Shown: positions 4,060 to 51,513 of the stretch, piece after piece | Layout: each line of letters opens with the position of its first letter | How positions within the stretch are numbered: position 1 is the stretch's first letter | NCBI GenBank assembly: GCA_002796125.1 | Contig: PCWA01000015.1 | Location: 11,650-73,903 of the forward strand | Origin: Candidatus Ghiorseimicrobium undicola | GTDB lineage: Bacteria; Omnitrophota; Gorgyraeia; Ghiorseimicrobiales; Ghiorseimicrobiaceae | DNA length: 62,254 bases | Direction: 5' to 3' | Translations under genes and position numbers: made by a program | Notes under the pieces: model-generated | Databases searched by the model: none | Seen by the model: only the letters and a program-made list of their open reading frames with translations | Told to the model about the DNA's origin: nothing

Positions 4060-5337
4060 ATGAAAATTTTAGTTATTGGTTCAGGCGGCAGGGAGCATGC
4101 TATTGCCTGGAGGATATCAAAGAGTCCTAAAGTAAGAGGGATTTTTTGCGCTCCCGGTAATGCCGGGATATCAGAAATTGCCGAATGCGTGGATATAGCC
4201 GCGGATGACTTGCAGGCCTTGGTTAAATTCGCAAAAGATAACTCTATTGATTTAACGGTTGTGGGGCCTGAAACAGCATTATGCCGCGGCATTGTTGATT
4301 TGTTTGAAAGTCAAAACTTAAAAATTTTCGGGCCGGGCAAATCAGCCGCACGGCTTGAAGGAAGCAAGCTTTTTGCAAAAGAGGCGATGGAGAGGTTCTC
4401 AATACCCACGGCCAAATACCGGGTATTTACGGATGCGCAATATCAAGACGCCTTAAACTATATTTCAGGTATAAAAAAGTATCCGATAGTCATTAAAGCC
4501 GATGGGTTGGCTGCCGGCAAAGGCGTAATTATCGCCAAAAGCAAAAATGAAGCAGAGGCGGCGGTAAAAGATATCTTGGTTGATAAGGTATTTGCCTCAA
4601 GCGGAGAGAAAATAATAATAGAGGAATGCTTAGAAGGCGAGGAAGCTTCAATACTTGCTGTTTGTGACGGAGAAAATTTTTTGTTACTGCCGCATTCTCA
4701 AGATCATAAAAGAGCCTTTGATAATGACCAAGGGCCCAATACAGGAGGCATGGGCGCTTATTCGCCGGCCCCGGTTGTAAAAGATGATATTTTAAATAAG
4801 ATAAATAAAGCGATAATTAAACCTTTGTTGGACGGCCTTAAAAGCGAAGGCAATATATACCGCGGTATTCTTTATGCCGGCCTGATGATAACTAAAGAAG
4901 GGCCTAAGGTGCTGGAATTTAATGTGCGTTTTGGCGATCCGGAGACACAGGCAATCCTTCCCAGAATAAAAACAGACTTGATAGATGTGATGTTTGCTTC
5001 AATAGAAGGCAGGCTTAGGGAGGTAAAACTGGAAATCGATTCGCGTTTTTGCGTCAATGTAGTGCTGGCTTCCGGCGGATACCCGGGCAATTATGAAAAG
5101 GGTAAAGAGATATTTGGTTTAGATGAAGCAGTAAAGATGCCGGATGTGATAGTATTTCATGCCGCCACCAGCAAAGAAAACGGCAAAATTGTAACTAACG
5201 GCGGAAGGGTGCTGGGAGTGACGGGATTAGGCAACACCATAAAAGAGGCAATTGCTAAGACCTATCAGGCAGTTGATAAGATTAACTTTGAAGGCATGCA
5301 TTATCGTAAGGATATCGGCAGAAAAGCCGTAAATTAA
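4060..5337 (+). CDS. purD: Phosphoribosylamine-glycine ligase
   Basis: GSGGREHA, KADGLAAGKGV, QDHKR, GPNTGGMG, EFNVRFGDPE. Confidence 0.97.
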   Translation: MKILVIGSGGREHAIAWRISKSPKVRGIFCAPGNAGISEIAECVDIAADDLQALVKFAKDNSIDLTVVGPETALCRGIVDLFESQNLKIFGPGKSAARLEGSKLFAKEAMERFSIPTAKYRVFTDAQYQDALNYISGIKKYPIVIKADGLAAGKGVIIAKSKNEAEAAVKDILVDKVFASSGEKIIIEECLEGEEASILAVCDGENFLLLPHSQDHKRAFDNDQGPNTGGMGAYSPAPVVKDDILNKINKAIIKPLLDGLKSEGNIYRGILYAGLMITKEGPKVLEFNVRFGDPETQAILPRIKTDLIDVMFASIEGRLREVKLEIDSRFCVNVVLASGGYPGNYEKGKEIFGLDEAVKMPDVIVFHAATSKENGKIVTNGGRVLGVTGLGNTIKEAIAKTYQAVDKINFEGMHYRKDIGRKAVN

Positions 5338-5373
5338 ATTACACAAAACAAGCAATGCTTGTTTTGTGTAATT
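5337..5373. repeat. 37-bp palindrome upstream of the transposase (REP-like)
   Basis: aattacacaaaacaagca-a-tgcttgttttgtgtaatt: perfect 18-bp arms with a 1-nt centre. Confidence 0.95.
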
Positions 5374-5383
5374 GGTGAATAGT

Positions 5384-6301
5384 ATGGATATAGAGAAACT
5401 GGTTGAGCAGGGGAAAGTCAAACGGATATTTCGGGCGCGCAATAAGATATCGTATTCAGGCGCTTGCTGCCATATAACTCAACGCGCTCCCGGCAGGGAG
5501 CTTTTATTTGTGGATGATAGGGATTATTTATATATGCTGCATTTATTGAAAACTAAATCCAAGAAATTTAATTTTCAGGTTTATTCCTTCGCGCTTTTAC
5601 CAAACCATTTTCATCTCCAAATATGTTTAGGTAAGGATAATTTATCGGCAGCCATAAAGAATATTTGTGAGACGTACGCGAAAATGTTTAATAAGAAATA
5701 TAGCCGCAAAGGGCATGTTTTTTGCGGCGCTTTCCGGCAGGCTTTATGTTTTGACGATGTTTATCTATTGGCCACCTCTTTATATATTCATCTTAATCCG
5801 GTAAGGGCAAGGCTCGTAGATAAGCCGGGAAAATATAGATGGTCATCATGCCGTCTTTATGTTAAACCGCAAACCGCTCCGGCATTTGTAAATCACGAAT
5901 TTATTTTAAAAACTTTGGACGACGATATCACTCGGGCTCAGAACGCCTATAGTCAGATTCTAAACAGATCTATTTTGATAACTGCGGAAGAAATTTGGAA
6001 TCATCGTAAAGCCATTGAAGACTTTACCAATCGTTTATCAGGGTGTATTAAGGCTTTAATAAGCAGTAATAATGTTGGCTCGATTTCACATAGTTTATGG
6101 AAGGCGGATCTTGATAAAGTGGTGGAACGGGTTCGGAACAATAAACGAGCTATGGATTTGGATGATTTAAAGGAAAGAAAATATGCTATAGAGCAATTGC
6201 GCGCGAGGGGATACGCGATGGATGAGATAGCAAATAAGTTGAAATTAAGCCGCAAGACATTATATAATATACTAAAATTACACAAAACAAGCATTGCTTG
6301 A
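5384..6301 (+). mobile_element. REP-associated tyrosine (Y1/HUH) transposase-like protein with C-terminal HTH
   Basis: PNHFHL (HUH), YIHLNPVRA (catalytic Tyr-x-x-x-NP), GHVF, YRWSS; C-terminal GYAMDEIANKLKLSRKTLYNIL HTH. Start moved to ATG 5384 (track start 5372). Confidence 0.85.
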
Positions 6302-6310
6302 AATGTGTAA
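6276..6310. repeat. Second, degenerate copy of the palindrome overlapping the transposase stop codon
   Basis: aattacacaaaacaagca-t-tgcttg-aaat-gtgtaa: left arm identical to 5337-5354, right arm altered at the tttt tract. Confidence 0.9.
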
Positions 6311-6332
6311 AATGAAGGAGAGAGGGAGAATC

Positions 6333-6815
6333 ATGGCGTCTAAAGCAGCGATAGTGATGGGCAGCGAATCGGATTTAGAGACGATGGAAGAGGCAAAAAT
6401 TGCCCTTGATGAGTTTGGTATTAAAAGCGCGGTAAAAGTGATGTCCGCGCATAGAAGCCCTAAGGCGGTAGTGGATTTTTCGCTTTCCGCCAGGGATAAG
6501 GGCATAAAGGTCATTATCGCCGGCGCCGGTGGAGCGGCGCATTTAGCAGGCGTAATTGCCGCGCACACTACTCTTCCGGTAATCGGCGTTCCGATAGAAA
6601 CCAGGAGTTTGAAAGGGCTGGATTCCCTTTTATCTACGGTGCAGATGCCGAAAAATGTGCCTGTGGCAACTGTTGCTATAGGAAAATCAGGCGCCAGAAA
6701 CGCGGGGATATTGGCAGCGCAGATTTTAGCGCTAGAGGATAAAAAGATTGCCAAGAAATTAGCGGGTTTTAAAAAGAAATTAGCAAAACAAGCCAAGAAC
6801 ATAAAATTAAATTAG
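6333..6815 (+). CDS. purE: N5-carboxyaminoimidazole ribonucleotide mutase / AIR carboxylase
   Basis: MGSESD, SAHRSP, AGAGGAAHLAG, VQMP. Start moved to ATG 6333 after a purine-rich RBS. Confidence 0.95.
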   Translation: MASKAAIVMGSESDLETMEEAKIALDEFGIKSAVKVMSAHRSPKAVVDFSLSARDKGIKVIIAGAGGAAHLAGVIAAHTTLPVIGVPIETRSLKGLDSLLSTVQMPKNVPVATVAIGKSGARNAGILAAQILALEDKKIAKKLAGFKKKLAKQAKNIKLN

Positions 6816-9574: not shown

Positions 9575-10033
9575 ATGGTAAAAAAACGATACCGGCCAAG
9601 TTGGGATGAATATTTTTTAGAAGCCGCGGAATTAGTAGCTAAACGTTCCACATGCCTACGCCGGCAGGTGGGGGCGGTGGCGGTACGTGATAAGCGTATT
9701 TTAGCTACGGGTTATAATGGCGCACCTTCAGGATTAAGTCATTGCGCGGATATTGGCTGTTTGCGCCAGAAACTCAAAATCCCGTCCGGGCAGCGTCAGG
9801 AATTATGCCGCGCTTTACATGCCGAGCAGAATATAATAATACAGGCGGTAATCCATAAAGTAGATTTAAAAGGTGCTACTATCTATGTAACTAACCAGCC
9901 TTGTGTTATATGCAGCAAGATGTTAATCAGTGTAGGTATAAGGGATATAGTAATACTTGATGGTTATCCGGATAAGCTGGCGAGAAAGATGTTGAGAGAA
10001 GCTAAAATTAAAGTAAGAAGAGTAAAAAAATAG
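9575..10033 (+). CDS. dCMP deaminase / ComEB family protein
   Basis: [27 protein letters not shown] Zn motifs. Confidence 0.9.
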
Positions 10034-10038
10034 CAATT

Positions 10039-10111
10039 CGTAATTAGTAACTTTTAATCCGTAGTTTTTAATTACCAGTTACTAATTACCAATTACTAAT
10101 TACTAGTTACG
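10039..10111. repeat. Heptamer array (ARTTACN x6) with an upstream inverted partial copy
   Basis: aattacc agttact aattacc aattact aattact agttacg at 10070-10111; cgtaattagtaact at 10039-10052 is the reverse complement of agttactaattacg. Confidence 0.85.
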
Positions 10112-25825: not shown

Positions 25826-25937
25826 CTCCGCTGCATAAACATTGAAAAATTATCGTAGAGAATTTTTCAATATTCCGCGGAGTTAATTCGCCCATACAAC
25901 TTACGTTCGCTTCGTTCCGTAAGTTGTGGGCCCATTA
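25826..25937 (+). repeat. Mosaic hairpin element: degenerate type-2 module plus type-1 module
   Basis: ttgaaaaatt-atcgtagag-aatttttcaa hairpin, then taattcgcccatacaacttacg...cgtaagttgtgggcccatta; same modules as at 34629 and 51148. Confidence 0.85.
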
Positions 25938-33911: not shown

Positions 33912-34631
33912 ATGGAAGAAATTATTCTTATGGTGGGTAAAAGAACTGAAATCGGCACTAAAGAAGCAAATCAGCTTAGGAAATCAGGATTTATCCCCGG
34001 AGTAGTTTACGGGGAGGCAAAATCAGAAGCAATAAAGATTTCCAGGTCTATATTGCTTAAATTCTTGCATGAACATAAAGGTGAAAACTTGATAATAAAT
34101 TTAAAAATTGATGAGGGGGATGCCAAGAAAGCAAAAAGCAGTACGGTGATGATTAAAGAAATACAGCTTGACCCGGTCAGCGATGAAATAATACACATCG
34201 ATTTTAATAGGATATCCATGACTAAAGCCATAACGGTTAAGGTTCCTGTTGAAGCCAAGGGCGAATCTATAGGCGTAAAAGCTGATGGCGGAGCGCTGGA
34301 ACATATTTTATGGGAACTTGAAATAGAATGCTTACCTAAAGATATACCTAATTCTATAACTATAGATGTAAGCCAGCTAAAGATCGGCGATGCAATACAC
34401 ATAAAGGATATCAAATTTCCTGAAGGCCTTAAAGTTAAGCATGAGCTAAACGCTATTGTTTTATCTATTGCTCCTCCTGCGAGAGAAGAGGTTCCCGCCG
34501 CCGGGGCAGAGGTACTTGCCGGAGAAGGCGAGGCTGAGCCGGAAGTAATTAAAGAGAAAAAGAAAGAGGAGGCGGCTAAAGAGCCTAAGGAAGCGGTAAA
34601 GGAACCTAAAGAAACAAAGGAAAGCAAATAA
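33912..34631 (+). CDS. rplY: 50S ribosomal protein bL25 (CTC long form)
   Basis: IPGVVYG, QLDPV, HIDF, GGALEH, CLPKDIP, acidic tail. Confidence 0.95.
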   Translation: MEEIILMVGKRTEIGTKEANQLRKSGFIPGVVYGEAKSEAIKISRSILLKFLHEHKGENLIINLKIDEGDAKKAKSSTVMIKEIQLDPVSDEIIHIDFNRISMTKAITVKVPVEAKGESIGVKADGGALEHILWELEIECLPKDIPNSITIDVSQLKIGDAIHIKDIKFPEGLKVKHELNAIVLSIAPPAREEVPAAGAEVLAGEGEAEPEVIKEKKKEEAAKEPKEAVKEPKETKESK

Positions 34632-34873
34632 TTCGCACTTATCCGCCTACGGCGGATGTGCTTATTTCCCGATGGCTAAACACTGCGTAGATTTCTTACG
34701 AAATCTACTTGTAGCCATCGGAATAATTCGCGCCTATCCGCCTACGACGGATGCGCTCATTTCCCTCGCCTATACGCTTGTAAATTTCTGGTGAAATTTA
34801 CTGCCCAGGCTTCGGGATTAATTCGGCCATACAACTTACGTCGGCTTCGCCTCCGTAAGTTGTGGCCTCATTA
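34629..34873 (+). repeat. Mosaic array of alternating hairpin modules (1-2-1-2-1)
   Basis: Type 1 at 34629-34666, 34724-34761, 34819-34873; type 2 at 34667-34723, 34762-34817. Confidence 0.9.
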
Positions 34874-34874
34874 T

Positions 34875-35456
34875 ATGAAGCTAATAGTTGGCTTGGGCAA
34901 CCCGGGTTATAAATATGAAAATAGCTGGCATAACTTGGGCAGGAAGGTAGTTAAGTGCTTAGCCAGAGATTTAAAATGTTCTTTTAAAAGAGTAGAAAAC
35001 TTAGAGAGTTTTATTGCAAAAACAGAATATAAAGGAGAAAAAGTTTTGTTGGCATTACCGGACAGATTTATGAATTTATCCGGCAGGGCCGTTAGAATTA
35101 TAAGTGAGAAAAAAAATATTCAGCTCTGCGATATGCTTATAGTTTTTGATGATATAGATATCAATTTTGGCGCCATAAAGATTAAGCATGGTGGTGCGAG
35201 CGCAGGCCACAGAGGCGTCGAATCCATTATAGAAAGGTTGGGTTCGTCCTGCTTTAGCCGCCTGCGGATAGGAATAAAGACTCAAAAATCCGGGGATAAA
35301 AAAGCCTTGTTGAGTGATTACGTATTATCTAATCTTGACTCTCAGGAGAGGGATAAATTCAAAGATATATCCGGGAATTCAATCGAGTGTATAAAAATCT
35401 GGATTACCGGCGGAGTTAAAAAAGCGATGAATGATTTTAATAAAAAAATTCACTAA
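34875..35456 (+). CDS. pth: Peptidyl-tRNA hydrolase
   Basis: MKLIVGLGNPG, HNLG, FMNLSG, GHRGVES, RLRIGI. Start moved to ATG 34875; the track extension reads through the repeat. Confidence 0.95.
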   Translation: MKLIVGLGNPGYKYENSWHNLGRKVVKCLARDLKCSFKRVENLESFIAKTEYKGEKVLLALPDRFMNLSGRAVRIISEKKNIQLCDMLIVFDDIDINFGAIKIKHGGASAGHRGVESIIERLGSSCFSRLRIGIKTQKSGDKKALLSDYVLSNLDSQERDKFKDISGNSIECIKIWITGGVKKAMNDFNKKIH

Positions 35457-50052: not shown

Positions 50053-51146
50053 ACAAGCATAGTAAGGATTGTGCCTAGCAGGCCGAATATGATATTTGGT
50101 ATCCACATGGCAAGTTCCGGCATGGGGTATCCATGCAGGCCAAGGTATTTCGCCAGGGCGCCTGCCCCCAGGATTAATAGGTAGTATATTCCAAAAATAA
50201 CAAAACCCAAGCCTAAATTTACGGATTTTAACCTTTGCTTGGCAATCATGCTTAAAGGACAGCCGATTAAAGCCAGGATCAGGCAGGCGAACGCGAGCGA
50301 GATCTTTGTTTGTATTTCTATGGAAAGCGGGCTATAGTCCATATCTGATTTAGCAAGGCGCCTGATTTCCTCATTAAGTTCTTTAAGTGTCATGTCTTTT
50401 GGTTTTTTAACCGTTTTACCATTGGTGGGTTTTGCGACATTTAAGTTTATAAAGTATGTTTTGAAGTTCAATTTATAAAACATATTAGGATCATTCGGGT
50501 TGGGTTCGTCGCTGGAACCGTCGATAAGCTTTAATTTGATTATTCCCTGTTCCGGCAAAGATATAAATTCCCCTTTTTTGGCAATAATTGTGCGCGCGGG
50601 CTTGCCGGGCCCTTGAGGTTCGTATATGCGTATATTTTCCAATTTATTGCCTTCGATTTTGTAAATAAACAATATATATTTTTGGAATGAATCAATAAAT
50701 GTCCCCGCCTCAAGCGTAGCCGTAGGGTTTTTGAAGCCTATATCAAGCATGGCCCTTCGCTTTTCAAAATTTGCTTTAGGCATAATAGTCGTGTTGAATA
50801 TTACCATAAAAAGGCTGAACATCAGCCCGAGGGTTATTACCGGCATGACGATATGCATAAGATTTATCCCCGCCGCTTTTATCGCCGTTATCTCGTTATC
50901 AGATGAAATTCTACCCATAGACCAGAGAACGCTTGTAAATATAGCCAAGGGGAGTATGAAGCTTAAGGGGTAGAATAAGGAGTAGAAAAACAGTTTACCT
51001 ACCGAGAAGACTTCAACGCCTTTATTTATTATCAGCGCCGTGTATTGAGTCAGGAAGACCAGAGAAAAAATAAACAACAAGACCGCAAGAGATAATATAA
51101 AAGGAGTTATAAATTCTTTTAATACATATTTACGCAGTATTTTCAT
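50040..51146 (-). CDS. lptF: LPS export ABC transporter permease LptF
   Basis: MKILRKY, DNEITAIKAAG; first of the paired permeases. Confidence 0.88.
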   Translation of the reverse strand: MKILRKYVLKEFITPFILSLAVLLFIFSLVFLTQYTALIINKGVEVFSVGKLFFYSLFYPLSFILPLAIFTSVLWSMGRISSDNEITAIKAAGINLMHIVMPVITLGLMFSLFMVIFNTTIMPKANFEKRRAMLDIGFKNPTATLEAGTFIDSFQKYILFIYKIEGNKLENIRIYEPQGPGKPARTIIAKKGEFISLPEQGIIKLKLIDGSSDEPNPNDPNMFYKLNFKTYFINLNVAKPTNGKTVKKPKDMTLKELNEEIRRLAKSDMDYSPLSIEIQTKISLAFACLILALIGCPLSMIAKQRLKSVNLGLGFVIFGIYYLLILGAGALAKYLGLHGYPMPELAMWIPNIIFGLLGTILTMLVCAF

Positions 51147-51147
51147 T

Positions 51148-51513
51148 TAATGAGGCCATAACTTATGGAGGCGGAGCCGGCATAAGTTATTTGGCCGAAT
51201 TATCCCGAAGCCTATCAGGGTAAAATTCGAAGAAATTTACCCTGATGTTTAGGCGAGGGATGCCGCTATCATCTAATGAGCGCATAACTTACGGAGTTCG
51301 AAGAACGACGTAAGTTATTTGCGCGAATTAATCTCCTCGCTTAAGCAAGGGGTAAATTCTCGAAGAGAATTTACCCCTTAAGCTTCGGAGTAGGTTAGAA
51401 CTTATTAAGCTTGAACCTACCCGCAGCCTATCGGGTAAATGTCGTAGAGATTTACCCGATGTTTAGGCAAGGGAAGGAGCGCATCCGCCTTGCGGCGAGA
51501 TAAGTGCGAATTA
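51148..51513 (-). repeat. Largest mosaic hairpin array: three type-1 and three type-2 modules with short spacers
   Basis: Type 1 at 51148-51202, 51274-51330, 51475-51513; type 2 at 51203-51260, 51332-51390 (inverted), 51420-51474. Confidence 0.9.

Follow-up and report, generated by a model that had tools for sequence, protein, structure and literature searches.

Why does the pur operon of Candidatus Ghiorseimicrobium undicola (Omnitrophota) carry, between purD and purE, a gene for a Y1-type HUH enzyme enclosed by two copies of a 37-bp palindrome? The question arises from a 62,254-nt stretch of contig PCWA01000015.1, here called the window, in which an earlier reading of the letters alone (the original prediction) had singled out this gene and its repeats. 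We consider it probable that the segment at 5337-6312, about 976 bp long, is a unit of the REPtron or TIRtron kind, in which a gene for a Y1 HUH protein, a presumed single-stranded DNA endonuclease and transposase with a helix-turn-helix (HTH), lies between two cognate quasi-palindromes, that it entered the purD/purE junction as a block, and that the enzyme also spreads solo copies of the palindrome. This reading is carried by the observed family and fold of the enzyme, the conserved architecture, the insertion status of the unit and the dispersed solo copies. The features of the locus are listed below; here and throughout, L- and P-numbers are the labels of loci or contigs and of homologous proteins in the analysis.

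4060-5337, plus strand: purD (phosphoribosylamine-glycine ligase), the upstream host gene, from the list of open reading frames (ORFs); stop TAA at 5335-5337
5337-5373, no strand: palindrome copy 1, perfect over 37 bp; arms AATTACACAAAACAAGCA and TGCTTGTTTTGTGTAATT, 18/18 complementary, centre base A5355
5374-5383, plus strand: 10-nt leader from copy 1 to the ATG, with a Shine-Dalgarno-like GGTGA in the 5374-5378 region, 6 nt 5' of the ATG
5384-6301, plus strand: HUH-HTH gene, 305 aa, in the same direction as purD and purE; ATG start, stop TGA at 6299-6301
6239-6268, plus strand: promoter-like TTGAAA-18-TATAAT with 11/12 matches in a consensus scan, within the 3' end of the HUH gene, 7 nt short of copy 2
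6276-6312, no strand: palindrome copy 2, with the left arm of copy 1 and centre base T6294; overlaps the 3' end of the HUH ORF
6313-6332, plus strand: spacer of about 20-22 nt from copy 2 to purE, with the strong, GGAG-rich purE ribosome-binding site GAAGGAGAGAGGGAG
6333-6815, plus strand: purE (AIR carboxylase), the downstream host gene; Pfam AIRC matches on the identical DNA of L001 and L002

The order described by the original prediction, from the purD stop through a perfect palindrome with 18-bp arms, a Y1 ORF and a second copy to purE, was present with coordinates within a base. The assignment of purD was supported by Pfam GARS_N, GARS_A and GARS_C matches to the identical purD of L001 and by homologs carrying the name phosphoribosylamine-glycine ligase. 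Copy 1, whose first base is the last base of the purD stop codon TAA and whose core TTACAC...GTGTAA occupies 5339-5371, is the longest perfect palindrome of the window, and the ATG at 5384 agrees with an alignment in which the homologs start MD(I/V). The left arm of copy 2 codes for the last residues of the HUH ORF, and the stop codon TGA sits within this copy. The right arm of copy 2 differs from that of copy 1 by TTT to AAA (6301-6303) and TT to AA (6311-6312) and by nothing else, and the AAA tract creates a 3x3 internal mismatch. The two copies start 939 nt apart and were grouped by repeat detection in the window (repeat family D15). A 23-mer of the palindrome was found at two sites in the 62 kb, both at the borders of the HUH gene, with 0.00 expected from 100 shuffles. 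As single-stranded DNA, copy 1 was predicted to fold with -16.9 kcal/mol (z = -7.5) and copy 2 with -8.5 kcal/mol and a 3x3 internal loop (z = -5.3). The predicted lack of a foot was confirmed, as neither GTAG nor GTGG was found beside copy 1 or copy 2. The copies had also been described as direct repeats at the exact gene borders; the position at the borders stood, and the orientation did not, since both copies are near-palindromic and the pair gave 34 matches of 45 in the direct and 35 in the inverted comparison.

By sequence comparison and in its modelled fold, the window protein is a Y1 HUH enzyme of the REP-associated tyrosine transposase (RAYT) branch, where REP stands for repetitive extragenic palindrome, with an added C-terminal HTH. 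Its residues 33-140 matched Pfam PF01797 (Y1_Tnp) with 27.9 bits against a cutoff of 23, over profile positions 7-119 of 121, in agreement with the Y1 enzyme originally proposed. The HUH core spans residues 21-155 approximately and is followed by a helical linker and by the HTH at about 260-303. When 15 homologs from several phyla, each 43-51% identical to the window protein, were aligned, the HUH motif N74-H75-F-H77, the tyrosine Y134 (in SLYIHLNP), the motif Y151-R-W-S154-S155 (YRWSS) and the HTH residues Q271, L272, G276 and I282 were all invariant. Weak Pfam matches to HTH_22, HTH_38, HTH_7, HTH_23 and HTH_28 fell within residues 248-303, and the best PHROG match of the C-terminus was a transcriptional repressor. 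A profile search of PDB sequences returned the HTHs of resolvases and response regulators and did not reach TnpA-REP, whereas the fold search did. In an AlphaFold2 model of the window protein (pLDDT 78.9), Y134 lies within a predicted helix at 125-141, and the best PDB match of this model in Foldseek was 4er8_A (E = 1.3e-6, TMt 0.75), followed by the TnpA proteins of IS608 (2vjv_A), IS200 (2f4f_A) and ISDra2. The 4ER8 structure shows TnpA-REP, the REP-associated tyrosine transposase of E. coli, in complex with a REP hairpin (PMC3333891). The RayT profile NF047646 of NCBIfam aligned over its positions 4-146 of 146 with 61.3 bits, under the equivalog cutoff of 80, and this score together with the extra HTH bears out the predicted distinct RAYT subgroup. 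An exhaustive homolog search gave 89 cluster representatives (50% identity) at E <= 1e-30, mostly full-length, and 9127 representatives at E <= 1e-10 that have only the core in common. The named sources were Omnitrophota, Elusimicrobiota, WOR-3, the Planctomycetes-Verrucomicrobia-Chlamydiae (PVC) group and metagenome-assembled genomes (MAGs) of Deltaproteobacteria, interleaved at similar identity.

The pair of palindromes belongs to the family as a whole. A flanking repeat score of at least 17 was reached in 56 of the 82 loci with enough flank, compared to 2 of 208 controls shifted by 1.4 or 2.1 kb, and these 56 loci, from Omnitrophota, Elusimicrobiota, Desulfobacterota and PVC, have two 33-45-nt TTAC..GTAA quasi-palindromes at the gene borders. 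Palindromes thus accompany the homologs and the protein lies within Y1_Tnp, the two points on which the original prediction could have failed. In each of three loci with unrelated neighbourhoods, L003, L006 and L168, the HUH gene is bordered on both sides by a copy of the locus's own 34-42-nt palindrome (ACTTTACAAAATCAGCAATGCTTAAAATGTAAAG twice with a spacing of 968 nt in L003, and TAACTTTACATTTTAGTTA.TAAC/TGACAAAAGTGTAAAGTTAG twice with a spacing of 969 nt in L006). In 47 of 53 loci no more than 30 nt separate the start of the downstream copy from the HUH stop codon, and in 20 this copy overlaps the ORF. When copy 2 was compared with copy 1 and with its reverse complement, 38 pairs were direct, 11 were inverted and 4 were ambiguous. 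Extra copies of the locus's own motif occur within 2.5 kb in 29 of the 53 gene loci, those of the Omnitrophota type included. Neighbouring genes are co-oriented with the HUH gene in 34 of 44 upstream and 30 of 47 downstream cases. Such proportions are about ordinary for adjacent bacterial genes, by expectation rather than by a measured baseline. A preference for co-oriented operon neighbours was therefore rejected, and insertion into housekeeping operons did not hold up as a rule.

One group of homologous contigs showed a more complicated arrangement. In the P0115 contigs L169-L175 (JGI 33000625xx and 33000627xx), a segment starting with TAAAGCGGGACGCTCTTAAAAAAG about 270 nt 5' of an intact HUH gene is joined to another copy of the same gene at three positions, namely the start codon, after codon 17 and after about codon 50. 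Similar 100-nt stretches lie in both flanks, the downstream one with a tRNA-like 3' part (GGTTCGAATCCTGGCCTCTCCACCA). It could be that the copies are nested or in tandem, or that the HUH gene is a target of some other element.

The HUH unit is an insertion into a conserved gene junction. Contig L178, which encodes P0124 (67% identity, found in a protein search), has the order purF-purM-purD-purE-sua5/LMWPc-rpiB-glyA as in the window. On this contig purD and purE overlap by 4 nt (TTATGA), the purE ribosome-binding site lies within the tail of purD, and there is neither a palindrome nor an HUH gene. In the window, 6311-6343 joined to the last sense codon of purD (5334) reads NEGERENHGV*, which may be a remnant of an older 3' tail of purD. 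A second, cleaner insertion was seen in L168, where the gene for P0015 lies between rnfA and rnfB and is bounded by an exact 42-nt direct repeat, TAACTTGACAAAATGAGCAATGCTTAAAATGTAAAGTTATGG. Copy 1 has the stop codon TAA of rnfA at its left edge and the ATG of the HUH gene at its right edge; copy 2 contains the stop of the HUH gene and has the ATG of rnfB at its right edge. The HUH gene was found at this junction in none of 36 relatives with both rnfA and rnfB (RnfA identity up to 81%), whose junctions were screened for the HUH gene with no scan aimed at the motif of L168, and in most of them the two genes are 1-7 nt apart. These empty-site comparisons are between species or genera, not strains. 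All contigs of the window's species carry the insert, including a 99%-identical purD variant (L176, L177), and the adjacency of purD and purE is not conserved in 80 GTDB relatives, where it was found in L110 only. The sequences GTAAAT, in the left flank, and GTAAAAT, at the right end, allow more than one reading of the element's ends and of a target-site duplication.

The rnfA-rnfB junction itself looks like a hot spot for small structured insertions. Omnitrophota relatives L301, L307/L310, L315, L317, L319, L320 and L323 have unrelated, palindrome-rich inserts of 45-127 nt at this site. The usual rnfA stop/rnfB start junction ATATGATAATG abuts, and some inserts end in ...CATGATA, which re-creates the junction.

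The repeat is built in three layers: an outer stem, a 3-4-nt A/T tract, and a short inner stem with a loop. The words of the outer stem are TTAC(A/C)C, TTTACA and TTGACA with their complements, and the family consensus is TTAC(A/C)C...G(T/G)GTAA. The A/T tract is very often the same on both sides and then does not pair. For the Desulfobacterota type, the statistics were drawn from 218 distinct 33-mers of the form TTACCCA-N19-TGGGTAA. The pair 6-28 was C-G in 197 of them and G-C in 19, with 2 non-pairs, and positions 8-10/24-26 read TTT/TTT in 120 and were complementary in 25-30%. The inner pairs 13-21 and 14-20 were Watson-Crick in 78% and 92%, compared to about 50% after shuffling of partners and 10-35% after sliding. 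The AAA/AAA mismatch of copy 2 recurs in both copies of L003, L011, L014, L018 and L168. The right arm of copy 2 had been taken for a decayed one, which these loci and the TTT/TTT tracts contradict; copy 2 has the canonical asymmetric form of the motif, and copy 1 is a fully paired variant. In the Desulfobacterota loci L180, L185, L194, L206, L209, L223, L235 and L249, the 33-nt motif forms tight head-to-tail dimers with 2-4 nt between the units. The 13-nt centres of the two units are mutually reverse-complementary and the polarity of the A/T tract is unchanged, and such a dimer could form one long hairpin, like a REPIN, whose stem would contain two internal loops of A.A or T.T.

Other functions of the palindromes were considered and rejected. 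As terminators they fail in that copy 1 lacks a T run and the sole terminator-like call on either of them falls on the minus strand, at the inner stem of copy 2. As promoters they fail in that TTGAAA-18-TATAAT is made of conserved codons, with the -10 element TATAAT formed by the Tyr-Asn codons of the HTH, and that a comparable site was found at only 10 of 53 homologous loci. The number of promoter-like sites in the region was not above that in shuffles, and the site at 6239-6268 is probably incidental, although it may allow outward transcription into purE. A reading of TTACCCA/TTACACA as a DnaA box was dropped, as no Bac_DnaA_C match was found. Rfam gave only chance-level matches, far under the gathering scores.

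Copies of the palindrome also occur away from any HUH gene. The original prediction had proposed a search of the genome and its relatives for the repeat. An exact-pattern scan of the contigs of GTDB-representative genomes gave no match for the window palindrome, in a set from which the window species is absent and where the best purD match is 62%, and a scan of metagenomes with the 23-mer gave three other contigs with one perfect palindrome copy each. The copy in L297 is identical to copy 1 in 37/37 positions, the copy in L299 matches over the whole palindrome, and the copy in L298 has the edges ATTT...AAAT. All three are extragenic, two of them 2-3 nt past the stop of a long ORF and one between two minus-strand genes, and no HUH homolog was found in the 5-12 kb around them. 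One of these contigs came from the same sample as a contig of the window species, and the tetranucleotide correlation of the solo contigs with the window was 0.95-0.98, compared to 0.98-0.99 within the window. Copy counts for the window organism are lower bounds, as the 23-mer scan missed Ga0066649_10005769 (L001), which holds both copies.

Solo copies were far more numerous in Desulfobacterota, where the variant TTACCCATTTC-N13-TTTGGGTAA was found in at least 120 stretches, on several contigs per MAG. No HUH gene was present in 71 of the 79 stretches examined, and 110 of the 122 oriented copies lay outside long ORFs. Some copies stood alone, some formed head-to-tail dimers with a spacing of 2-4 nt, and some were clustered at 50-125 nt. 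A preferred orientation of the solo motif relative to the flanking genes was unconvincing (24 vs 13). The generic motif gave one match in 680 kb of other loci, mostly from Omnitrophota, which is the chance level, and it is therefore not a general feature of Omnitrophota.

The window also contains other repeats. A second, unrelated family of extragenic hairpin repeats lies at 25841-25935, 34627-34880 and 51140-51500, in all cases between ORFs. Its units are about 60 nt long, for example TAATTCG..CATACAACTTACG-loop-CGTAAGTTGTGG..CATTA, and are mixed with GGGTAAAT..ATTTACCC and AATAATTCGCACTTATCCGCCTACGGCGGATG hairpins in clusters that resemble bacterial interspersed mosaic elements. An A/T-rich inverted repeat at 10028-10108 has 31-nt arms, 84% complementary and 12 nt apart, with TAATTAGTAAC-like words.

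We propose that the unit or its ancestor would have entered the tight purD/purE junction as one block, in the direction of the operon. On the left side, the A/T-rich edge of copy 1 meets the purD stop and has one base in common with it, and the purE ribosome-binding site is intact 3' of copy 2. Hairpin formation in vivo, cleavage, a role for the HTH and mobilisation in trans are suggested by analogy with the biochemistry of TnpA-REP and TnpA-IS608 (PMC3333891, PMC3479197, PMC8266576). In single-stranded DNA, for example at a replication fork, each palindrome would fold into a hairpin with the outer stem TTACAC/GTGTAA, an often unpaired 3-nt A/T tract that is the same on both sides, a co-varying inner stem and a small loop. 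Once bound to this hairpin by its HUH domain, the enzyme would cut and rejoin the DNA beside it through Tyr134. The E. coli TnpA-REP requires an irregularity in the stem and is strand-specific on single-stranded REPs, and activity on the REP with the AA/GC bulge is lost when pairing is restored (PMC8266576). The unpaired tract may mark the strand in the same manner as the bulge of the E. coli REPs. The HTH could provide a sequence-specific grip on the outer arms or serve autoregulation of the gene. Besides carrying its own gene into place, the same enzyme would spread solo palindromes in trans, and this would explain both the solo copies of the window type and the solo, dimeric and clustered copies in Desulfobacterota.

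Several observations weigh against this reading. The polarity of the tract relative to the gene is opposite in the two types, with A on the coding strand in the Omnitrophota type and T in the Desulfobacterota type, and the flanking copies are mostly direct (38, vs 11 inverted and 4 ambiguous); the mixture of direct and inverted pairs and the opposite polarity are left unexplained by the proposed unit. The symmetric co-variation of the arms would also be expected of an operator for a dimeric HTH. A canonical guide-like GTAG tetranucleotide is absent, and cleavage of hairpins by the HUH-HTH family is a homology-based assignment. No solo copy of the palindrome was found elsewhere in the 62-kb window, and the solo copies on other contigs are not surely from the same genome, as L178 also gave a tetranucleotide correlation of 0.96. 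No recent mobility is visible: a strain-level empty purD/purE site was not found among the contigs of the window species, and the co-resident HUH paralogs, in four MAGs with two genes each, are 52-58% identical and thus divergent paralogs rather than recent duplicates.

Among the alternatives, an autonomous insertion sequence (IS) of the IS200/IS605 type survives best, though we regard it as unlikely. The palindromes would then be the left and right subterminal hairpins of an element that moves as a single-stranded circle by peel-and-paste, and the solo copies would be remnants or derivatives like miniature inverted-repeat transposable elements. With its single gene flanked by two similar hairpins, most often direct (38/53), the unit has the layout of IS200. 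The fold resembles those of the IS608 and IS200 TnpA, and the whole unit occurs in unrelated contexts and is missing from orthologous junctions. Many Logan contigs with homologs are 917-1025 bp long, about the length of a unit, which may reflect assembly breaks at the flanking repeats. However, no genome was found with identical or near-identical copies, only with the divergent co-resident paralogs, although this is a weak test because MAGs may collapse repeats. At twice the length of TnpA-IS200, the protein finds its best matches in RayT and 4ER8, and both ends have the same sequence instead of distinct left and right ends with different cleavage sites. In addition, Desulfobacterota have far more solo motifs than genes, in the same way that REPs are more numerous than RAYT genes.

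A further alternative, which was contained in the original prediction and which we find rather improbable, is that a REP-like palindrome was already present at purD/purE. The HUH gene would have been integrated there by site-specific single-strand recombination that duplicated the palindrome, and excision would leave a purD-palindrome-purE junction. In favour of this, solo copies elsewhere lie just past stop codons, as copy 1 does past purD. Furthermore, the copies in L168 form an exact 42-nt direct repeat that runs from the rnfA stop to the ATG of the next gene, and the solo copies match copy 1 exactly, with copy 2 as the variant form. Against it, no site was found that has a solo palindrome where a relative has the full unit, and inverted pairs, an arrangement that the model does not produce, are present in 11 of 53 loci. 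The proposed comparison of purD-purE junctions for empty sites yielded a junction without a palindrome (L178) and none with a single palindrome, and no purD-palindrome-purE contig was recovered in the 23-mer scan of the metagenomes. Insertion into a gene junction was thus upheld by L178 and by rnfA/rnfB, whereas insertion at, or duplication of, a pre-existing palindrome was not, and restoration of purD-palindrome-purE by recombination found no support, since the sole syntenic relative found has the 4-nt overlap and no palindrome.

It is similarly doubtful that the unit represents a distinct kind of mobile cassette, in which one hairpin serves as both ends of an integron-like system driven by the HUH enzyme. 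If so, cleavage at two direct copies would release a single-stranded circle with the gene and one palindrome and leave a solo palindrome behind, and solo palindromes would be landing pads. The palindrome would act as an intercistronic linker, with TAA at its left edge and a start codon at or just past its right edge, and cassettes would slot into overlapping stop/start junctions such as purD/purE and rnfA/rnfB without breaking the operons.

Least probable is that the palindromes are double-stranded operators for the HTH of a domesticated, immobile DNA-binding factor, where they would serve autoregulation and might also act as roadblocks or terminators. The conserved HTH with its four invariant residues, the outer arms conserved in sequence beyond pairing, the sites directly 5' of the start codon and at the gene end, and the repressor-like C-terminus fit such operators, but the HUH motif and tyrosine, invariant in 15 proteins from several phyla, would argue for retained chemistry, the non-complementary tract and co-varying inner stem point to a strand-specific hairpin more than to a symmetric operator, the hundreds of solo sites outside genes would be operators without an obvious target, and the unit is demonstrably an insertion.

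The closest described system to the proposed unit is the TIRYT/TIRtron (Di Nocera et al. 2013, PMC3733652). In both systems the protein is a RAYT-like Y1 HUH enzyme, about 300 aa long, that has an HTH at its C-terminus and a serine motif past the catalytic tyrosine (YRWSS here). Its gene lies between two long repeats, with possible self-complementarity and a possible overlap with the 3' end of the ORF. In both, the repeat is moderately abundant and dispersed in some genomes, and the taxonomic distribution is patchy. In contrast, the published consensus of the terminal inverted repeat, GGGGWSAS, is absent here, where the motif is TTAC(A/C)C...G(T/G)GTAA with a same-strand A/T tract, and the pairs are mostly direct (38/53, with 11 inverted), whereas TIRtron repeats are inverted. 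The TIRYTs probably correspond to subclass 2.1 of the TnpA-Y1 proteins of Quentin et al. 2018, who found no REP-like sequences near subclass 2.1 genes (PMC6006769). The window family may be placed in subclass 2.1 by common features, not by comparison with the published sequence set, and it differs in that REP-like repeats near the HUH gene are the rule.

Compared to RAYT/REPtron systems such as E. coli yafM, the family has in common the best structural match 4ER8 and the end-to-end alignment to NF047646. Cognate palindromes flank the gene, extragenic copies are solo, dimeric or clustered, the stem has a conserved irregularity, and each co-resident paralog has its own motif variant, as read off the paired loci. 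It differs in the NF047646 score of 61 bits, below the cutoff of 80, in an extra C-terminal region of 150 residues with the HTH, and in A/T-rich palindromes without a GTAG (or CGTC) foot. Furthermore, the gene and both palindromes occur at different loci, operon interiors included, and not at one vertically inherited locus. With the IS200/IS605 elements IS200, IS608 and ISDra2, the unit shares the HUH-Y1 core, a gene between two similar hairpins on one strand, a length of about 1 kb, and presence or absence at orthologous sites (purD/purE and rnfA/rnfB, at the level of species or genera). Unlike these elements, it encodes a protein twice as long with an HTH, is not found in multiple identical copies, has the same sequence at both ends and has no definable conserved target tetranucleotide.

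A literature search for the strings of the repeat motif returned nothing relevant. What is new is a class of REP-like repeats without GTAG that is paired with a widespread, HTH-bearing, RAYT-like clade of uncultivated bacteria, so far barely described, and this is a known kind of unit rather than a new principle. To our knowledge, the understanding of REP sequences and RAYT enzymes comes almost entirely from Proteobacteria whose REPs carry the GTAG tag. The clade in Omnitrophota, Elusimicrobiota, Desulfobacterota and PVC has a clear cognate repeat and resembles the large HTH-bearing branch of Y1 enzymes (subclass 2.1/TIRYT) that had been reported without REP-like partners, and the grammar of this repeat can be read, with a conserved outer stem, an unpaired A/T tract that would mark the strand and a co-varying inner stem. 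The two clean natural insertions, at purD/purE and rnfA/rnfB, are suited to asking how such units enter an operon without harming it. The repeats offer a concrete substrate for biochemistry on HUH-HTH enzymes, and the REP/RAYT phenomenon is extended to uncultivated phyla.

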